A DNA stretch of 64,000 bases from contig CAVRGH010000010.1 of the NCBI GenBank assembly GCA_963720675.1, positions 491,830-555,829 of the forward strand. The letters run 5' to 3'. This DNA is from an uncultured Acidimicrobiia bacterium (GTDB lineage Bacteria; Actinomycetota; Acidimicrobiia; IMCC26256; PALSA-555). Both the position numbers and the translations under genes were made by a program. This document shows, one piece after another, positions 2,904 through 33,004 of this stretch; position 1 is the first letter of the stretch, and every line of letters starts with the position of its first letter. The notes beneath the pieces were generated by a model, which had not been told where the DNA came from, ran no database searches, and saw only the letters and a list, made by a program, of their open reading frames with translations.

Positions 2904-4787
2904 TCACGGTCGGCCACCCGGTGCGGGTGAGCCACTGTGCAACCGCTCGTACAGGGCGGCCCCGACGGCGTCGGGCAACCATGGCAGCGCCAGCAGGTCG
3001 TCCACCGAAAGCTCACGGAGCTTCTTGACGGACCCGAACTCCCGGAGCAGGCGGGTGCGTCGCGTCGGCCCGAGCCCAGCCACCTCGTCGAGCACCGAGC
3101 GCGTCGCCTGCTTGTCGCGCAGCTTCCGGTGGTAGGTGATCGCGAACCGGTGGGCCTCGTCGCGCACCTGTTGCAGCAGGTAGAGCGCCTCGGAGTCGCG
3201 GGCGATGCGCACCGGCTCGCTGCGATCGGGCAGGTAGACCTCTTCCAGGCGCTTCGCGAGCGAGGCGACCTGGATGTCCTCGAGCCCGAGCTCCTCCAGG
3301 ACGCGCACGGCGACATTGAGCTGACCGCGTCCGCCGTCCACCACCAGCAGGTTGGGAGGGTACGCGAACCGCTTGCCGGCGCGTGCGCCCTCGTCGCGCT
3401 CCTCGAGGTACCGCTTGAAGCGGCGGGTGAGCACCTCCTCCATGGAGGCGAAGTCGTCCTGGCCGTCCTGGTGGCGGACCTTGAAGCGGCGGTAGTCGGA
3501 CCGCTTGGCGAGCCCGTCCTCCATCACGACCATCGACCCGACGATCTCGGTCCCCTGGAGGTTCGAGATGTCGAAGCATTCGATACGCAGCGGCGCGTCC
3601 GGAAGCTGTAGCGCGTCCTGGAGGGCGGTGAGCGCTCGGGCGCGAGCGTTGTGGTCGGACGCGCGCTTGAGCTTGTGCTGCGCGAACGCTTCGCCGGCGT
3701 TGCGCGTGACGGTCGCGAGCAGCTCGCGCTTCTCCCCCCGTTGCGGGACCCTGACCCCGACGCGCGCGCCGCGGACCTCGGCGAGGAACGCTTCGGCGAG
3801 CTTCGGATCGGCCGGCTGGACCGGGACGAGCACCTCCCGTGGGACGTCCTCGGGCGCGGCGCCCGCGTACAGCTGCTCCAGGGTCCGCTCCACCAGCGCC
3901 GGGGTGTCGAGGTCCTCGACCTTGTCGACCACGAGGCCGCGCCGACCGACGACGCGGCCCTTCCGGACGAAGAACAGCTGGATCGACGCCTCGAGCTCGT
4001 CCTCGACGAGTCCGATCACGTCGAAGTTCTCCTCCTTGGGGGCGACCATCTGCTGTCGCTCGATCGCCTTGCGCACCGAGGTGAGCTGGTCGCGGAGGCG
4101 AGCAGCTCGCTCGAACTCGAGCTCGTCGGACGCCTCGCGCATCTGCAGCTCGAGCCGGGCGACGACCGGGCCGCTCTCGCCGTCGAGGAACGCGATCAGG
4201 TCGGCGACGAGCCGGTCGTACTCGTCCTTCGCGATGTCCCCCACACACGGCGCCGCACACTTCTCGATGTGGGCGTAGAGGCAGGGACGCCCGAGGCGCT
4301 TGTGCCGATCGAACTTCGCGTTCGTACAGGTGCGGATCGGGAACGTGCGCAGGAGGAGGTCGAGGGTCTCCCGGATCGCGTATGCATGGGCGAACGGCCC
4401 GAAGTAGCGAACGCCCTTGCGCTTCTTGCCCCGCATCACCATCGCCCGGGGCCACTCCTCGTCGAGGGTGACCGCGAGGTACGGGTACGACTTGTCGTCC
4501 TTGTACCGGATGTTGAACCGGGGATGGTGTGTCTTGATGAGGTTGTACTCGAGGAAGAGTGCCTCGACCTCGTTGCTGACCTCGATCCACTCCACCGTCT
4601 CGGCCACCGCGACCATCTGGCGGGTGCGGGGCAGCAACGACTCCGGCGGGCCGAAGTAGTTGGAGAGACGGCTGCGGAGGCTCTTCGCCTTCCCGACGTA
4701 GATGACCCGGCCGCGCGCGTCCTTGAACTGGTAGGAGCCGGGGGTGGTGGGGATGGAGCCGGCCTCGGGGCGCTGCACGGTCCCCAT
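2904..4787 (-). CDS. uvrC: Excinuclease ABC subunit C
   Basis: ORF 2904..5066. Homology starts at internal ATG (4787) with MGTVQRPEAGSIPTTPGSYQFKDARGRVIYVGKAKSLRSRLSNYF (GIY-YIG). A C-terminal HhH region is present. Confidence 0.93.
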   Translation of the reverse strand: MGTVQRPEAGSIPTTPGSYQFKDARGRVIYVGKAKSLRSRLSNYFGPPESLLPRTRQMVAVAETVEWIEVSNEVEALFLEYNLIKTHHPRFNIRYKDDKSYPYLAVTLDEEWPRAMVMRGKKRKGVRYFGPFAHAYAIRETLDLLLRTFPIRTCTNAKFDRHKRLGRPCLYAHIEKCAAPCVGDIAKDEYDRLVADLIAFLDGESGPVVARLELQMREASDELEFERAARLRDQLTSVRKAIERQQMVAPKEENFDVIGLVEDELEASIQLFFVRKGRVVGRRGLVVDKVEDLDTPALVERTLEQLYAGAAPEDVPREVLVPVQPADPKLAEAFLAEVRGARVGVRVPQRGEKRELLATVTRNAGEAFAQHKLKRASDHNARARALTALQDALQLPDAPLRIECFDISNLQGTEIVGSMVVMEDGLAKRSDYRRFKVRHQDGQDDFASMEEVLTRRFKRYLEERDEGARAGKRFAYPPNLLVVDGGRGQLNVAVRVLEELGLEDIQVASLAKRLEEVYLPDRSEPVRIARDSEALYLLQQVRDEAHRFAITYHRKLRDKQATRSVLDEVAGLGPTRRTRLLREFGSVKKLRELSVDDLLALPWLPDAVGAALYERLHSGSPAPGGRP

Positions 4788-4869
4788 TGTCCCAGAGATG
4801 GGAATCGGTTCGGTCGGCTCGACGTTATGATCTCCACAAGACCGGGCCTGGAAGTCCCCGGTCACAATA

Positions 4870-4969
4870 CGAACCCGGGGCCGACAACCCCGCGGTGGGC
4901 GACCAGGCTGTCCCCGCCGGCCATCACCGGGCTCGCACATCAGGTACCAACCGTGAGGTGCCACACATG
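4870..4969 (+). promoter_or_regulatory. Candidate class-I NAD+ riboswitch (nadA motif), two tandem domains ending at the nadA start codon
   Basis: ACAACCCCGCGGUGGGCGAC (4884-4903) and ACCAACCGUGAGGUGCCAC (4946-4964) are two similarly built short hairpin/internal-loop cores 62 nt apart. The first resembles the CAACA-CCCC...GGGG-ACGA core I recall for nadA-motif domain 1. The second abuts ATG 4967. Gene context (nadA) is the canonical one. Confidence 0.35.
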
Positions 4970-6061
4970 CTGCGACTCCAGGCTCCCCTGCCGGACCGGT
5001 ACACGCTCGCGTCCCCCGATGAGCTCGCCGAGTGGATCCAGACCGCCAAGGACACGCTCGGTGCACGGCTCCTGATCCTCGGCCACCACTACCAGCGGCC
5101 CGAGGTCATCCGCTGGGCCGACCTGCGGGGCGACTCGTTCAAGCTCGCCCAGTGGGCCGCCGAGCACGACGAGGCCGACACGATCGTCTTCTGCGGCGTC
5201 CACTTCATGGCCGAGGCCGCCGACGTGCTCACGGCGGACCACCAGCGGGTGATCCTCCCCGACCTCAACGCAGGTTGTTCCATGGCCGACATGGCCGACA
5301 TCGACCAGGTCGAGGAGGCCTGGGCCGAGATCGCCGCGATCACCGACATCGAGCGCGTCGTCCCGATCACCTACATGAACTCCTCGGCGGCACTGAAGGC
5401 GTTCGTCGGCGAGCACGGTGGGTCGGTGTGCACCTCGTCGAACGCGCGGGCGTCACTCGAGTGGGCCTTCGCGAAGGGTGACCGAGTGCTCTTCTTCCCC
5501 GACCAGCACCTCGGTCGCAACACTGCGTTCCAGATGGGCTACGGCGCGTCCGACATGCGCGTCTGGAACCCCCACAAGGATCTGGGCGGGCTCGAGGACC
5601 GCGACGTGAAGGAGTCGAAGATCCTCCTGTGGAAGGGGCACTGCACGGTCCACCAGCGCTTCCAGCCCAAGCACGTCGAGGCGTTCCGTGCCGAGCACCC
5701 CGACGGCGAGGTCATCGTGCATCCGGAGTGCATGCACGAGGTGGCCGAGCTTGCCGACAAGGTCGGCTCCACCGAGCGCATCCTCGAATGGGTGACCGCG
5801 GCGCCCACCGGGTCGACGCTCGGGATCGGCACCGAGATCCACATGGTGCAACGCCTCGCGGCCGAGAACCCCGACAAGACCGTCATGTCACTCGATCCGC
5901 TCGTGTGCCCCTGCGCCACGATGTTCCGCATCGACGAGCCGCACCTCGCGTGGTGCCTCGAGTCGCTCGTGGCCGGCACGGTGGTGAACCAGATCGTGGT
6001 CGACGATCACACGACCGAGTGGGCGAAGGTCGCGCTCGAGCGGATGCTCGCCATCACCTGA
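4967..6061 (+). CDS. nadA: Quinolinate synthase
   Basis: ORF 4787..6061. Homology begins at ATG 4967 (MLRLQAPLPDRYTL...LILGHHYQRPEVI...VFCGVHFMAEAADVL...CSMADMA), typical NadA. Confidence 0.92.
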   Translation: MLRLQAPLPDRYTLASPDELAEWIQTAKDTLGARLLILGHHYQRPEVIRWADLRGDSFKLAQWAAEHDEADTIVFCGVHFMAEAADVLTADHQRVILPDLNAGCSMADMADIDQVEEAWAEIAAITDIERVVPITYMNSSAALKAFVGEHGGSVCTSSNARASLEWAFAKGDRVLFFPDQHLGRNTAFQMGYGASDMRVWNPHKDLGGLEDRDVKESKILLWKGHCTVHQRFQPKHVEAFRAEHPDGEVIVHPECMHEVAELADKVGSTERILEWVTAAPTGSTLGIGTEIHMVQRLAAENPDKTVMSLDPLVCPCATMFRIDEPHLAWCLESLVAGTVVNQIVVDDHTTEWAKVALERMLAIT

Positions 6062-6083
6062 CCCGTCTCACCCAGCCCCGGCT

Positions 6084-7791
6084 TCAGGTGCGGACGTACT
6101 CCGCGACGGTGAGGCGAATCCCGCTGAGGAACTCGATCGAGCGCGACGACGCCCGTGCGTAGTCGCCGAACCGCTCGGGCGCCTGGCGCGGCGTCCGTGC
6201 GACGACGCTGAACCGCTCGGCCCCGGTCGCGTCGAGGATGCCGAGTGCCACGCTCCGATCGCCGGGTTCGTCCACCGTGAGCCGCGGCGCCGCGGGGTCG
6301 TAGAACGCGCCCCGCTCACGCAGCTGGTGCGGGAGGCCGATCGTCACCACCGGATCCCGAGTAGCGAGCACCGCGGCAGAGTCGGCGACGACGTGCGAGC
6401 GCTCCGAGAGCCACGCCACACCGCACCCGGTGACGAGGACCGCCGCGAGCACGAACGCGACGAACGAGCGCGTGCCCCGCTCCAGCAGTGCGACGATGCC
6501 CACGACGGCCAGGAGGGCGCCCGATGCCAGCAGGTACCGCCCGCCCCACTGCACGTTGGCGCCGTCGGGATACTGGAAGAGGAACACGAGGGGTAGGGCC
6601 CCGATCACGATCGCGGCGACGAGCCGCGGCTTCACGTCACGCGTCGCCGCGATCGCGCCGGCCACGGCGAACGGCGAGGTGACGAGCATCCCGGGAAGGA
6701 AGCTCAGGCCGTCGGACAACCGGAACAGCAACAGGGCACCGGCGAGCAGCGAGGGCCACGTAGGCAACGGGCTCGGTGCCGCTTCAGGTCGAGGAGCACC
6801 GCGGCGGCGAAGCCGACGAGGACCACGATCAGCGCGCCGAACAGCCAGTCCACCCTCGGCGCGTAGTTGTTCAACCCGACCGTGGTGCGAAGCACGTTCT
6901 CAATCCGCACGACGAGATCGGTCCCGCCAGCAGCCGCGGCACTCGACGCCCGCCCGCTCCGGAGCGCTTGCCCGACGCGAGCCGCTCCAGGAGCTGGTCG
7001 AGCGCGAGCGGTGTCACGAGCCCCACTGCCGCGGCGGCCACGATGCCCGGGATGCCGCGCCGGCGACTGCGGACGAGAACGACCGTGGCAACCAGTACGG
7101 TCACCGCCGCGTACACGAGCGCCTCGGTGCGCATCGTCGCGGCGAGGCCGAACAGCGCCCCGGCCGCGAAGGTGGCCTTCCACCCGGCGGCGCCGGCGCG
7201 CCACGTCGACGAGCAGCACGACGCCCCAGAGCATCGCAGCGAGGCCGAGCGAGTGCTCCCAGAAGTCCAGCGCGTACACCGCGACCGGGGTGGCGAGGCC
7301 AATCGCCCAGAAGGCGAGCATGCCGTCACCACCCAGCCGTCGCGCGAGGGCGCGCGCCGCGAGGGCCGCGAGCACCGCTCCGAGCATGGGGAGCAGCAGG
7401 ATCCCGCGCAGACCGCCCACCTCGTAGAGCGGCACGGCCGCGTAGAGCATCGGCAGCGTCGTGACGTTCAGCCATTGGTCGCCGATGTGGCACGGTGAGC
7501 GCGAGCGGGTGCGCGACGCCGTTGCGGTCGAACCGCTCGGCCCAGTACCCGACGTCGGGATCGAGGTCGCCTCGCTCGTCCATCGCCCGGATGGTCGCGA
7601 CCTTGGCGCCGGTGTCGGTGCCGAGGAACGCGCGCGGGTCGTTGAGGAGCGACAGGCACCCGTAGATCCCGAGGAGGACGACGCAGGCGACGAGCGGCCG
7701 GGTCAGCGCTGTGCCGCGCCCGCGCCGGGAACGGCCGGGACGAGATCGGGCCGGACACCGACGGCGCTCGGGGCGCCGTCGCGAGGCTCAC
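6084..7791 (-). pseudogene. Polytopic membrane protein, GT-C/PMT_2-like glycosyltransferase candidate, frame broken 4-5 times
   Basis: Hydrophobic, coherent segments are spread over ORFs 7326..7583, 6704..7450, 6871..7332 and 6084..6767. Examples: LTRPLVACVVLLGIYG...DPDVGYWAERFDRNG / IGDQWLNVTTLPMLYAAVPLYEVGG / WKATFAAGALFGLAATMRTEALVY / TDLVVRIENVLRTTVGLNNYAPRVDWLFGALIVVLVGF / PTWPSLLAGALLLFRL. Junctions lie near 7488, 7212, 6985 and 6785, possibly also about 7715. Start is uncertain; a GTG at 7791 overlaps the upstream stop. Confidence 0.55.
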
Positions 7792-8537
7792 CCCTGCTTG
7801 CGGGCGAGCAGGACGAGCAGTCTGGGGATCGAGGCCGCCTCGCCGTACTCGGGTGCCTGGTCCAGGAAGCCCGGCGGAGGCGGTGGTTCGTCCATGTGCT
7901 CGACGAGCAGCCCACAAGTTGCCATCACGTTGATGTATCGGCTCAGCGGGCGGTGCATAAAGGGGAGTTTGATGCCGGGGGCAACCTCCTCCATCGACAC
8001 GTCGTCGTGCAGGTAGGGGCCGACGCGCCAGTACTGCTCTTCGAGGATGTGGTCGTCGATCCATCCGCTGTTCGGCGCCTGGAGCAGCGGATGGTTGAGG
8101 AAGAGGAGGAACCGACCGCCGGGGGCCAGGACCCGCCCGACCTCCTCGACCGCGGGCTCGAAGGGATCCATGTGCTCGAGGCTCAGGCAGATCACGAGCG
8201 CGTCGAACGAGCCGGTTGCGAAGGGCAGGTGCTCGGCCGCACTCCGGGCGTAGCGGACGTCACCGCCGCGCACCTTGGCCTCGACGATCTGGTTCTCGGT
8301 CAGGTCCACGCCGACGACACGCGCACCGCGGGCCGCGGCGCGACGCGAGAGCTGGCCTTCGCCACAGCCGACGTCGAGGAGGAGCGATGCACCCGCGAGG
8401 TGCTCATCGGCCAGCGGGAGGATCTGCTCCTCGTACTCCGGGTCGGCGCCGTCGGTGAAGTGCTCCTGCCACCACCCGGCGTGCGTCTCCCACTCGTTGC
8501 CCACCGCGTCGGGCTCGGGGACCACGGGTGCCGGCAT
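7788..8537 (-). CDS. Class I SAM-dependent methyltransferase
   Basis: 249-aa ORF with LLLDVGCGEGQLS (motif I) and ...VLAPGGRFLLFLNHP. ATG start at 8537. Confidence 0.8.
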   Translation of the reverse strand: MPAPVVPEPDAVGNEWETHAGWWQEHFTDGADPEYEEQILPLADEHLAGASLLLDVGCGEGQLSRRAAARGARVVGVDLTENQIVEAKVRGGDVRYARSAAEHLPFATGSFDALVICLSLEHMDPFEPAVEEVGRVLAPGGRFLLFLNHPLLQAPNSGWIDDHILEEQYWRVGPYLHDDVSMEEVAPGIKLPFMHRPLSRYINVMATCGLLVEHMDEPPPPPGFLDQAPEYGEAASIPRLLVLLARKQG

Positions 8538-8556
8538 CGCCTGACCGTACGCCGGG

Positions 8557-11508
<2,952 letters not shown>

Positions 11509-29995: not shown

Positions 29996-31154
29996 ATGAC
30001 CCCCCATCCGATCTTCACGGCCGAGCACGACGAGCTCCGGGGATCGGTCCGCCGGTTCGTCGAGGCCGAGCTGGCTCCGCACGTCGACGAGTGGGAGGAC
30101 GCCGGCTCGTTCCCCGACGAGGTCTTCCGCCGGGCCGGCGAGCTGGGGTTCCTGGGCCTCCACTACCCCGAGGCCTGGGGTGGGTCGGGCGGCGACCTGG
30201 CTGCGGAGCTCGTGTTCGTCGAGGAGATCGCCAAGGCAGGCTGCGGGGCGATCGCGATGGCGCTGTCGGTCCAGACCGACATGGCCACTCCCGCGCTCGG
30301 CGAGTTCGGCACCGACGACCAGAAGGAGCGGTACCTCCGCCCGGCGATCGCCGGCACGAAGATCGCAGCCATCGCGATCACCGAGCCCGACGCCGGCTCG
30401 GACGTCGCGGGCATCGGCACCCGAGCGACGCTCGACGGCGACGTCTGGCGCGTCAACGGGACGAAGCTCTACATCACGAACGGCGCGCGGGCCGACTTCC
30501 TCACGTGCGTCGTGAAGACGGACGCGTCGGCCGGGCATAGCCGGCATCTCGCTCCTGCTGGTCGACACCGACCTCCCGGGCGTGACGGTGTCACGCAAGC
30601 TCCGCAAGCTCGGGATGTGGTCGAGTGACACCGCCGAGATCGCGCTCGACGACGTCGCCGTCCCCGCCGCGAACCTGATCGGCCTCGAACCGGGTCACGG
30701 GTTCGCGCAGCTGATGTGGCAGCTCCAGTACGAGCGCATGTCAGGCGCAGCCGCGTGCCTCGGCTACGCGGAGAGCGTCCTCGACGAGACCATCGCGTAT
30801 GCGAAGGACCGCAACGCGTTCGGCCGTCCGATCGCCGGCCACCAGGTCGTCGCGCACATGCTCGCCGACGCGGCGACCGAGCTCACCGCGGCGCGCGCCC
30901 TCGTGTACGACACCGCGTGGCGGATCCTGCAGGGCGACTACCCCGTCGCCGAGATCTCGATGGCGAAGAAGTACTCGGCCCAGGTCTTCAACCGCCTCGT
31001 CGACACCTGCCTCCAGGTGCACGGCGGCATGGGGTACATGCACGAGGCCCGGGTGAGCCGCGCGTTCCGCGACGCAAGGCTGCAGCGCATCGGTGCCGGG
31101 ACGGACGAGATCATGAACGAGGTGATCGCCAAGCGTCTCGGGATCACGCCCTGA
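29996..31154 (+). pseudogene. Acyl-CoA dehydrogenase, frame broken once near 30541
   Basis: N-terminal and middle domains (MTPHPIFTAEHDELRGSVRRFVEAELAPHVDEWE...AIAITEPDAGSDVAGI...YITNGARADF) form the tail of ORF 28784..30628. The C-terminal domain (LRKLGMWSSDTAEIALDDV...QVHGGMGYMHEARVSRAFRDARLQRIGAGTDEIM) is in 30582..31154. Removing one C in AGCCGGCATC restores SGISLLLVDTDLPGVTV. Confidence 0.85.
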
Positions 31155-32920: not shown

Positions 32921-33004
32921 GTGCCCGAGGAGGGATTCGAACCCTCATGCCCTTTCGAGCAATGGATTTTGAGTCCATCGTGTATGCCGTTCCACCACTC
33001 GGGC
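32921..33004 (-). tRNA. tRNA-Leu (anticodon CAA), encoded CCA
   Basis: Minus strand: GCCCGAGTGGTGGAACGGCATACACGATGGACTCAAAATCCATTGCTCGAAAGGGCATGAGGGTTCGAATCCCTCCTCGGGCACCA. It has a 7-bp acceptor stem, anticodon loop CT-CAA-AA, a long variable arm and a GGTTCGAATCC T-arm. Confidence 0.93.

Follow-up and report, generated by a model that had tools for sequence, protein, structure and literature searches.

The nadA locus

The window analysed here, a stretch of 64,000 nucleotides from the genome of an uncultured bacterium of the class Acidimicrobiia (Actinomycetota), contains the gene nadA for quinolinate synthase at 4967-6061 on the plus strand (NCBIfam TIGR00550 nadA, E = 3e-94, above the cutoff of that model). 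Its start codon is the ATG at 4967-4969, and NadA homologues align with the encoded protein from residue 1. The divergent neighbour of nadA is uvrC (2904-4787, minus strand; NCBIfam UvrC, E = 2e-264), and a spacer of 179 nt separates the uvrC start at 4787 from the nadA ATG at 4967, as correctly given in an earlier reading of this DNA that had been made without database searches (the sequence-only reading). On its other side nadA is flanked by a uvrA-like gene with Pfam UvrA domains (8557-11505, minus strand). Neither nadB nor nadC follows nadA in the window, and the long open reading frames (ORFs) searched in between (region 6062-8556; 6430-7464 and 7461-8702 on the plus strand, 6084-6767 and 6704-7450 on the minus strand) have no Pfam or NCBIfam match. 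A search of the whole window with Rfam 15 at gathering thresholds returned only a tRNA with a long variable arm at 32922-33004 on the minus strand (59.5 bits), and nothing near the nadA leader.

The sequence-only reading had proposed that this leader harbours a tandem NAD+ riboswitch of the nadA motif, i.e. two similarly organised elements, ACAACCCCGCGGTGGGCGAC at 4884-4903 and ACCAACCGTGAGGTGCCAC at 4946-4964, the first of them preceded by GGCCG at 4879-4883. All three sequences are found at these positions, and the comparison of nadA leaders bears out that a riboswitch-type RNA, with a conserved structure supported by covariation, occupies the spacer. This RNA is a single element of about 100 nt, which begins about 30 nt upstream of the interval considered earlier and includes a 5' hairpin and a pseudoknot that are absent from the sequence-only reading.

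Conservation of the leader element

Using the NadA protein as a query, we retrieved the best 80 of at least 591 relatives from species-representative genomes, with NadA identities of 67-84%. Nearly all of these 80 loci are from metagenome-assembled genomes (MAGs) of Acidimicrobiia, to which the cultured Aquihabitans daechungensis DSM 27986 (L067; taxonomy confirmed) is added. Their leaders share a near-invariant block, GGCCGACANCCCCGYGG...GGCGACCNGGCUGYCCCCRCCGGCC, and 78 of these 80 loci, all of them of the Acidimicrobiia type, have one and only one copy of an anchor pattern, immediately before nadA. A gene-agnostic motif pattern, scanned over metagenome contigs, produced at least 120 matches. 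Among the matches listed, a nadA start lies 40-77 nt downstream in 107, and 7 end at contig ends, so that nadA follows in 107 of 107 genuine and readable cases. Six matches are without nadA (L100, L116, L121, L122, L183, L189) and likewise without P0, P1 and P2; they are located mostly inside ORFs, have no covariance-model match and correspond to about the number expected by chance, to which we attribute them. As only the best 80 of at least 591 NadA relatives and 120 metagenome matches are covered, the range and the regulon given here are lower bounds.

Seventy-two full-length elements from the genome loci were aligned with MAFFT (alignment A2), and a covariance model (R1) was built from this alignment. 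Of the first 100 metagenome loci, R1 detects 96; the other four are precisely those regarded as spurious. In the genome set it yields one match per locus, with none in L019 and L043 and a low-scoring one of 24.9 bits in L065. In the window, R1 has a single match at 4837-4940 on the plus strand (85.1 bits, E = 2.1e-15, R1 E-values being rough), the next best score being 14 bits. A second match of the 13-nt anchor in the window, at 30191-30203, falls within a coding region (...GGDLAAELVFVEEIAKAG...), is accompanied neither by the flanking motif nor by a model match, and was discarded as a chance occurrence. Altogether, about 170 further nadA leaders share the element and support it by covariation.

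A few loci deviate from this pattern. L019 and L043 carry close nadA orthologues with neither the anchor nor a covariance-model match; the sequence upstream of nadA in L019 looks coding, so this gene may be part of an operon. In L065 (1017-1116), a MAG labelled Acidobacteria, P0, the pseudoknot (CCGGG/CCCGG) and the GGCGACC...CUGCC module are kept, and UGUUGUAU stands in place of GCCG-ACANCCCC; the copy may have decayed or may have changed its specificity. In the Actinobacteria bacterium IMCC26207 (L050:2858-2959) and a relative (L051:1394-1496), ACUUACCA replaces ACANCCCC and part of the bulge is taken up by a helix in a shifted register, CCAGAGG/CCACUGG, the remaining motif being intact (72-74 bits). 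Finally, three loci labelled Bifidobacteriaceae, Burkholderiales and Bordetella parapertussis (L001, L013 and L022, respectively) possess an Acidimicrobiia-type nadA with the full motif and are probably mis-binned or mislabelled MAG contigs.

Secondary structure and covariation

The 5' end of the element follows closely on a -10-like hexamer, and some 30 nt separate its 3' end from the nadA ATG. At its 5' side lies the hairpin P0 (4840-4863, formed by 4840-4845 with 4858-4863), the loop of which carries the 5' arm of a pseudoknot, GCCUGG at 4846-4851. A linker, J0/1 (ACAAUACG, 4864-4871; consensus ACAUAU...), follows, in which the ACA after P0 is conserved in most sequences. The remainder of the element is a long, interrupted stem. 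Its closing helix P1 pairs 4872-4878 with 4927-4933, and its next helix P2 pairs GGCCG at 4879-4883 with CGGCC at 4918-4922; on the 3' side the two helices are separated by the internal loop AUCA(C) at 4923-4927. The sequence-only reading had rightly suggested the pairing of GGCCG with CGGCC, which covariation supports, and had placed the 3' partner at 4916-4920, two nucleotides short of its position.

Above P2, the 5' strand bulges out with the eight nucleotides ACAACCCC (4884-4891; consensus ACANCCCC), which have no nucleotides opposite. The bulge is followed by P3 (4892-4895 with 4914-4917), the single bulged nucleotide U4896, P4 (4897-4900 with 4910-4913) and the apical loop GACCAGGCU (within 4892-4917), in which CCAGGC at 4903-4908 forms the 3' arm of the pseudoknot. 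The helix above the bulge is, according to covariation, GCGG/CCGC, with G4892:C4917 as its first pair, and the C-run belongs to the bulge; the sequence-only reading had assigned this run to a CCCC...GGGG mini-helix followed by ACGA, an arrangement that has to be abandoned.

The structure was scored explicitly on A2 and, in the same form, on an independent alignment of 92 distinct metagenome sequences (A3). In A2, 95.6% of the cells are paired, a proportion that falls to 25-49% upon displacement of the 3' partners by 1-3 columns and, with both alignments considered, to 25-50%; double-sided changes occur at 17 of the 30 pairs, none of 500 shuffles reaching the observed value on any measure; in A3 the corresponding values are 97.0%, 19 of 30 and 0 of 500. 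The sequences being related, these and the following counts refer to sequences, not to evolutionary events, and do not represent independent events. P1 shows compensatory changes at six of six pairs in both alignments (95-97% paired), P2 covaries at four of five pairs in A2, and P0 at five of five pairs in A3 and three of five in A2 (91-96% of cells paired). At the second pair of P3, CG and UA occur 49 and 21 times in A2 and 57 and 35 times in A3. The central pair of the pseudoknot takes all four Watson-Crick types (A2: UA 55, CG 9, GC 5, AU 3; A3: UA 73, CG 13, GC 2, AU 1, UG 1) and is unpaired in none of the 72 and 90 sequences, respectively. Compensatory changes in two independent alignments thus support the nested helices and the 6-bp pseudoknot, with the exception of P4, which is compatible with pairing and nearly invariant; covariation cannot test P4 and the proposed tertiary partners, all of which are invariant.

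RNAalifold independently predicts P1, P2 and P3, and the minimum free energy (MFE) structure of the window sequence alone reproduces all nested helices, including P0, together with the 8-nt bulge. The folding energy of this single sequence is not significant (z = -1.15) and is not counted as evidence.

Conservation of the unpaired positions is equally pronounced. A2 was selected by protein similarity and its bulge profile is therefore unbiased with respect to RNA sequence: A in all 72 sequences, C in 72, A in 70, a variable fourth position (A 36, U 30, C 5), C in 57 or A in 15, and then C in 72, 72 and 70. The penultimate pair of P2, C4882:G4919, is CG in 71 of the 72 A2 sequences and in all 92 of A3, without being imposed there by the search pattern, and GGCGAC and CUGUC of the apical module are invariant. 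The bare 8-mer ACANCCCC has 8 matches in the window against 6.6 expected, so that the resemblance of this motif to a known aptamer alone proves nothing; it is as the core of a conserved element of about 100 nt that the first of the two sequences singled out earlier becomes significant.

A further hairpin, CGGGG-CCGACAA-CCCCG at 4876-4892, would hide the C-run of the bulge against the 5' strand of P1 and P2, and, where a lineage has GGGG at the junction of P1 and P2, could represent the apo state. A terminator-like site on the minus strand (4892-4876) is the reverse complement of this plus-strand hairpin of the aptamer; it has no gene to terminate and was rejected.

Promoter and transcript start

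The hexamer TATGAT at 4827-4832 (plus strand) resembles a -10 promoter element and predicts a transcription start at about 4838-4841. In all 72 aligned leaders of A2, a hexamer TANNNT ends 5-11 nt before the first pair of P0; its commonest form is TACACT. A scan with the sigma-70 consensus detected no promoter in the leader, and the hexamer is visible only from the alignment. Its presence in 72 of 72 leaders suggests that the nadA transcript probably begins at the conserved element, which makes a start downstream of 4903 unlikely.

The region between the element and nadA

For the region 3' of the element, MFE folding predicts an expression platform at 4933-4975. Its inner hairpin, GGUACC (4943-4948)-AACCGUGA-GGUGCC (4957-4962), includes and half covers the Shine-Dalgarno (SD) sequence GAGG at 4955-4958, and its outer stem pairs 4933-4940 with the AUG at 4967-4969 and with 4971-4975. 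The stretch 4946-4964, regarded by the sequence-only reading as the second riboswitch domain, is the loop and 3' arm of this local SD hairpin and is lineage-specific. Even in the closest relative (L095; NadA 91% identical, aptamer 95% identical) its ACCAACC reads ACUCAAC, more distant leaders have hairpins of the type CUCCC-loop-GGGGG instead, and a second ACANCCC is present in just 5 of 183 leaders, at inconsistent positions. Of the two hairpins for which conservation and covariation had been anticipated, only the first has them; the two are not similarly organised, and the leader holds no second domain but a non-conserved hairpin around the SD site.

Predicted pairing of the SD site is enriched among the leaders. 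The median distance between the conserved core and the ATG is 45 nt, and a purine-rich SD sequence lies 10-17 nt before the ATG, matching GGAGG at five of five positions (G allowed at the central A) in 142 of 178 leaders. At least four of the five SD nucleotides are paired in 75% of the 178 leaders, compared with 52% after shuffling of the upstream arm; the SD sequence of the window is only about half paired. A search for a mutually exclusive anti-sequestor helix was negative, as blocking the 5' half of the aptamer leaves the predicted SD accessibility nearly the same (0.20 vs 0.23). Since nearest-neighbour folding thus reveals no P1-dependent change of SD accessibility, switching is not explained by a mutually exclusive helix, and the coupling of aptamer and SD site may be steric, kinetic or tertiary. 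In some lineages, though not in the CGAUGC group, a GGAG in the 3' strand of P1 could pair with the anti-SD sequence. In one leader (L039:2440-2475), UUUCUUUUU comes after the SD hairpin CUUCCCCGAGGGGG and directly ahead of the start codon; this arrangement resembles an intrinsic terminator, which hints that control may be transcriptional in some lineages.

Comparison with known NAD+ riboswitches

According to the structural literature, domain 1 of the class-I NAD+ riboswitch (RF03013) comprises a helix P1, whose conserved penultimate C:G pair is in A-minor contact with the adenine of the ligand, and a bulge of eight nucleotides, ACANCCCC, with A8 stacked on the ligand and C13 and C14 paired with G38 and G36; its further parts are the helix P1a of constant length (7 bp), an internal loop with AGYG in its 3' strand, and P1b (PMC7297122, PMC7708056, PMC6859854). 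In the crystallised RNA of Ca. Koribacter versatilis the bulge A8-C15 is embedded as ...UUC-A|ACAACCCC|G-UAGGUU... (PMC7297122), and it is identical to that of the window, GGC-C-G|ACAACCCC|G-CGG.... The resemblance noted in the sequence-only reading between this core and the ADP-binding core of domain 1 is therefore reproduced as a signature of helix, ACANCCCC bulge and helix. In both RNAs two stacked helices (P2 and P3 here, P2 being equivalent to the class-I P1) flank the bulge, which belongs to the 5' strand and has nothing opposite, the lower helix has a penultimate C:G pair, the upper one opens with a G-C pair, and positions 1-3 and 6-7 of the bulge are invariant whereas position 4 varies. 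The class-I positions that contact the ligand or metal are the invariant ones of the present element. Both RNAs are located immediately upstream of nadA, and translational control via the ribosome-binding site (RBS), as in class I, is presumed here too.

Beyond this pocket the two differ in almost every respect. Instead of the 7-bp P1a, the leader element has 4 bp (P3), a 5' bulge of 1-3 nt, 3-4 bp (P4) and a 9-nt loop. In place of AGYG on the 3' strand and P1b, neither of which is present, it has CCAGGCUGUC, whose AGGC pairs with the P0 loop. It further possesses the additional 5' hairpin P0, the 6-bp pseudoknot with the apical loop, and an additional closing helix P1 below the internal loop. 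In the apical module, the invariant G-C-G-A at 4899-4902 on the 5' strand occupies stacked positions 7-9 above the bulge, with its C paired to the invariant G4910, and may correspond to the class-I GYG with the strands swapped. Class I is known from Acidobacteria, as opposed to the Acidimicrobiia (Actinomycetota) hosts found here, and is always built of two aptamers according to a 2022 review (PMC9481103), in contrast to the single one of the present leaders; the discovery paper likewise states that neither domain occurs alone, the only variant reported being that of ubiB in Nocardia.

No Rfam family matched the region 4700-5100 even at E <= 10, RF03013 included, which the sequence-only reading had named as a check and the absence of which it had counted as a refutation, and the consensus-like leader L017:2850-3010 gave only noise at the same threshold (CRISPR-DR28, PVT1_2, Xoo8), again without RF03013. 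With respect to RF03013, the element has the ACANCCCC bulge, the penultimate C:G pair and the position upstream of nadA, and has neither a score at or above the gathering threshold nor the 7-bp P1a, the AGYG loop with P1b or the tandem second domain. The suggestion of the sequence-only reading that it is a divergent variant outside Acidobacteria is nevertheless a fair description, considering its Acidimicrobiia hosts and the class-I pocket signature.

Two further RNAs deserve comparison. The ubiB motif, a variant of nadA domain 1 from Nocardia with nine known representatives (Malkowski et al. 2019), is similarly a single domain-1-like aptamer with an RBS hairpin in an actinobacterial host; to go by its description, on which this comparison is based, it is near-identical to nadA domain 1, precedes ubiB/aarF and not nadA, and has the 7-bp spacing to the internal loop that is absent here. 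Class-II NAD+ riboswitches (pnuC motif) are also pseudoknotted single aptamers that are associated with an NAD-related gene and occlude the RBS, but their consensus is unrelated, they recognise the nicotinamide/NMN moiety, and they are associated with pnuC in Streptococcus and related Firmicutes. Membership in class II is contradicted by the absence of any Rfam match at E <= 10 and by the downstream gene, which is always nadA here.

Interpretation

A conserved and covarying structure in the 5' UTR, invariant unpaired nucleotides and a consistent association with a gene of one pathway, here exclusively nadA, are general hallmarks of riboswitches, all of which the element shows in addition to the class-I pocket signature. 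On balance, we consider it reasonably probable that 4837-4940 is the aptamer of a single-domain riboswitch of the NAD+-I kind, which lies in the nadA 5' UTR and represses nadA translation. The element appears to be an undescribed variant that is found across Acidimicrobiia; it is absent from Rfam 15, and we found no earlier description in the searchable literature, outside of which many subscription papers lie. It probably derives from, or converges on, the ADP pocket of class I.

According to this riboswitch model, the RNA would start a few nucleotides after the -10 hexamer and fold into P0 and the long bulged stem (in the order P1, internal loop, P2, 8-nt ACANCCCC bulge, P3 and P4), the apical loop of which would form the 6-bp pseudoknot with the P0 loop. 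The junction of P2, bulge and P3 would constitute the ADP pocket, with its penultimate C:G pair, a stacking A1 of the bulge and the invariant C6 and C7. NAD+ (or NADH) would presumably bind to this junction through its ADP moiety and thereby fix the junction in place together with the pseudoknot and the closing helix P1. The short hairpin 3' of the aptamer is predicted to occlude the SD site and the start codon, so that at high NAD levels the bound RNA in its compact form and the neighbouring anti-SD:SD hairpin would jointly reduce the initiation of nadA translation. The system would then act as an OFF switch like class I, its ligand, its direction of regulation and its switching step being inferred.

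Four other explanations have to be weighed. P1a, the AGYG loop, P1b and domain 2 of class I are all absent, so the similarity of the pocket could be convergent and the ligand a different one. This leads to the foremost alternative, namely an independent riboswitch class with a convergent ACANCCCC bulge that senses another NAD-pathway or ADP-containing metabolite, such as NaAD, ADP-ribose, ATP/ADP or quinolinate, and not NAD+ itself. It would account for an architecture that, apart from the bulge, has no relation to class I (a pseudoknot, no AGYG loop, no Rfam similarity), and for a different ligand it is relevant that the ADP moiety is all that class-I aptamers themselves recognise, and that they fail to exclude ATP (PMC10702441). 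We regard it as unlikely all the same, as the conservation of the bulge and its flanking pairs mirrors the class-I ligand contacts position by position, the exclusive association with nadA matches class I, and, as argued in PMC6859854, NAD+ far exceeds in abundance every other end product of the pathway that contains ADP.

Still less probable, in our estimation, is a structured leader that serves a protein or another trans-acting factor, or mRNA stability only, and binds no metabolite. Although such a leader would agree with the failure of thermodynamic modelling to detect an alternative-helix switch, about 20 loop and bulge nucleotides are invariant amid freely covarying helices, as is typical of small-molecule aptamers, and the match to a crystallographically defined ADP pocket likewise speaks against it; nor was a regulator gene noticed that is conserved alongside nadA, uvrC being the divergent gene in the window.

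A canonical tandem class-I riboswitch (RF03013), in which two ACANCCCC domains are present and the second sequesters the RBS, is very improbable: it would explain the identical 8-nt bulge, the penultimate C:G pair and the location upstream of nadA, but RF03013 matches neither the leader of the window nor the consensus-like one at E <= 10, a second ACANCCC in 5 of 183 leaders and a median of 45 nt between core and ATG are hard to reconcile with a second domain, the supposed second element is altered even in the closest relative, and the length of P1a, the J2 loop, P0 and the pseudoknot all set the RNA apart.

Finally, we can virtually dismiss both a DNA operator for a repressor of the NrtR, NiaR or NadR type, even though protein repressors control NAD regulons in other Actinobacteria, in view of compensatory changes that maintain the pairing of five helices and the pseudoknot and so reveal a constraint at the RNA level, and an N-terminal extension of nadA, for which an ORF running in frame from the TTG at 4787 to 6061 could be invoked, since the leaders covary in the manner of an RNA and differ by indels whose lengths are not multiples of three, NadA homologues align from Met1, and the extension gains only 4 bits against the NadA profile.

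Within the favoured reading, that of a single-domain NAD+-I-kind riboswitch, a more far-reaching proposal can be advanced tentatively, as possible but doubtful: the element might represent a third structural solution for NAD+ sensing, in which an ancestral ACANCCCC ADP pocket is buttressed by the 5' hairpin and pseudoknot and not by J2, P1b and domain 2, with GGCGAC/CUGUC supplying the partners of the bulge cytosines and possibly the nicotinamide site. If this is true, the discrimination of NAD+ from ADP and ATP, and the purpose of domain 2, would become directly testable on a single aptamer.

NAD+ is one of the few universal cofactors whose control by riboswitches is still poorly understood. 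The class-I riboswitch is confined to Acidobacteria, has been described as always tandem, visibly binds only the ADP half of its ligand and cannot exclude ATP in vitro. This picture would change with an abundant single-domain relative that retains the pocket and has a pseudoknot in place of the remaining scaffold, as the present element, with its occurrence in no fewer than 78 genomes at species level and over 100 contigs from metagenomes, appears to be. Such a relative would extend RNA-based control of NAD to Actinomycetota, would reveal what in the class-I fold is indispensable, and would be a simpler object for work on structure and selectivity. It would also give the nadA leaders of Acidimicrobiia, a class that is largely uncultured, a specific regulatory annotation.
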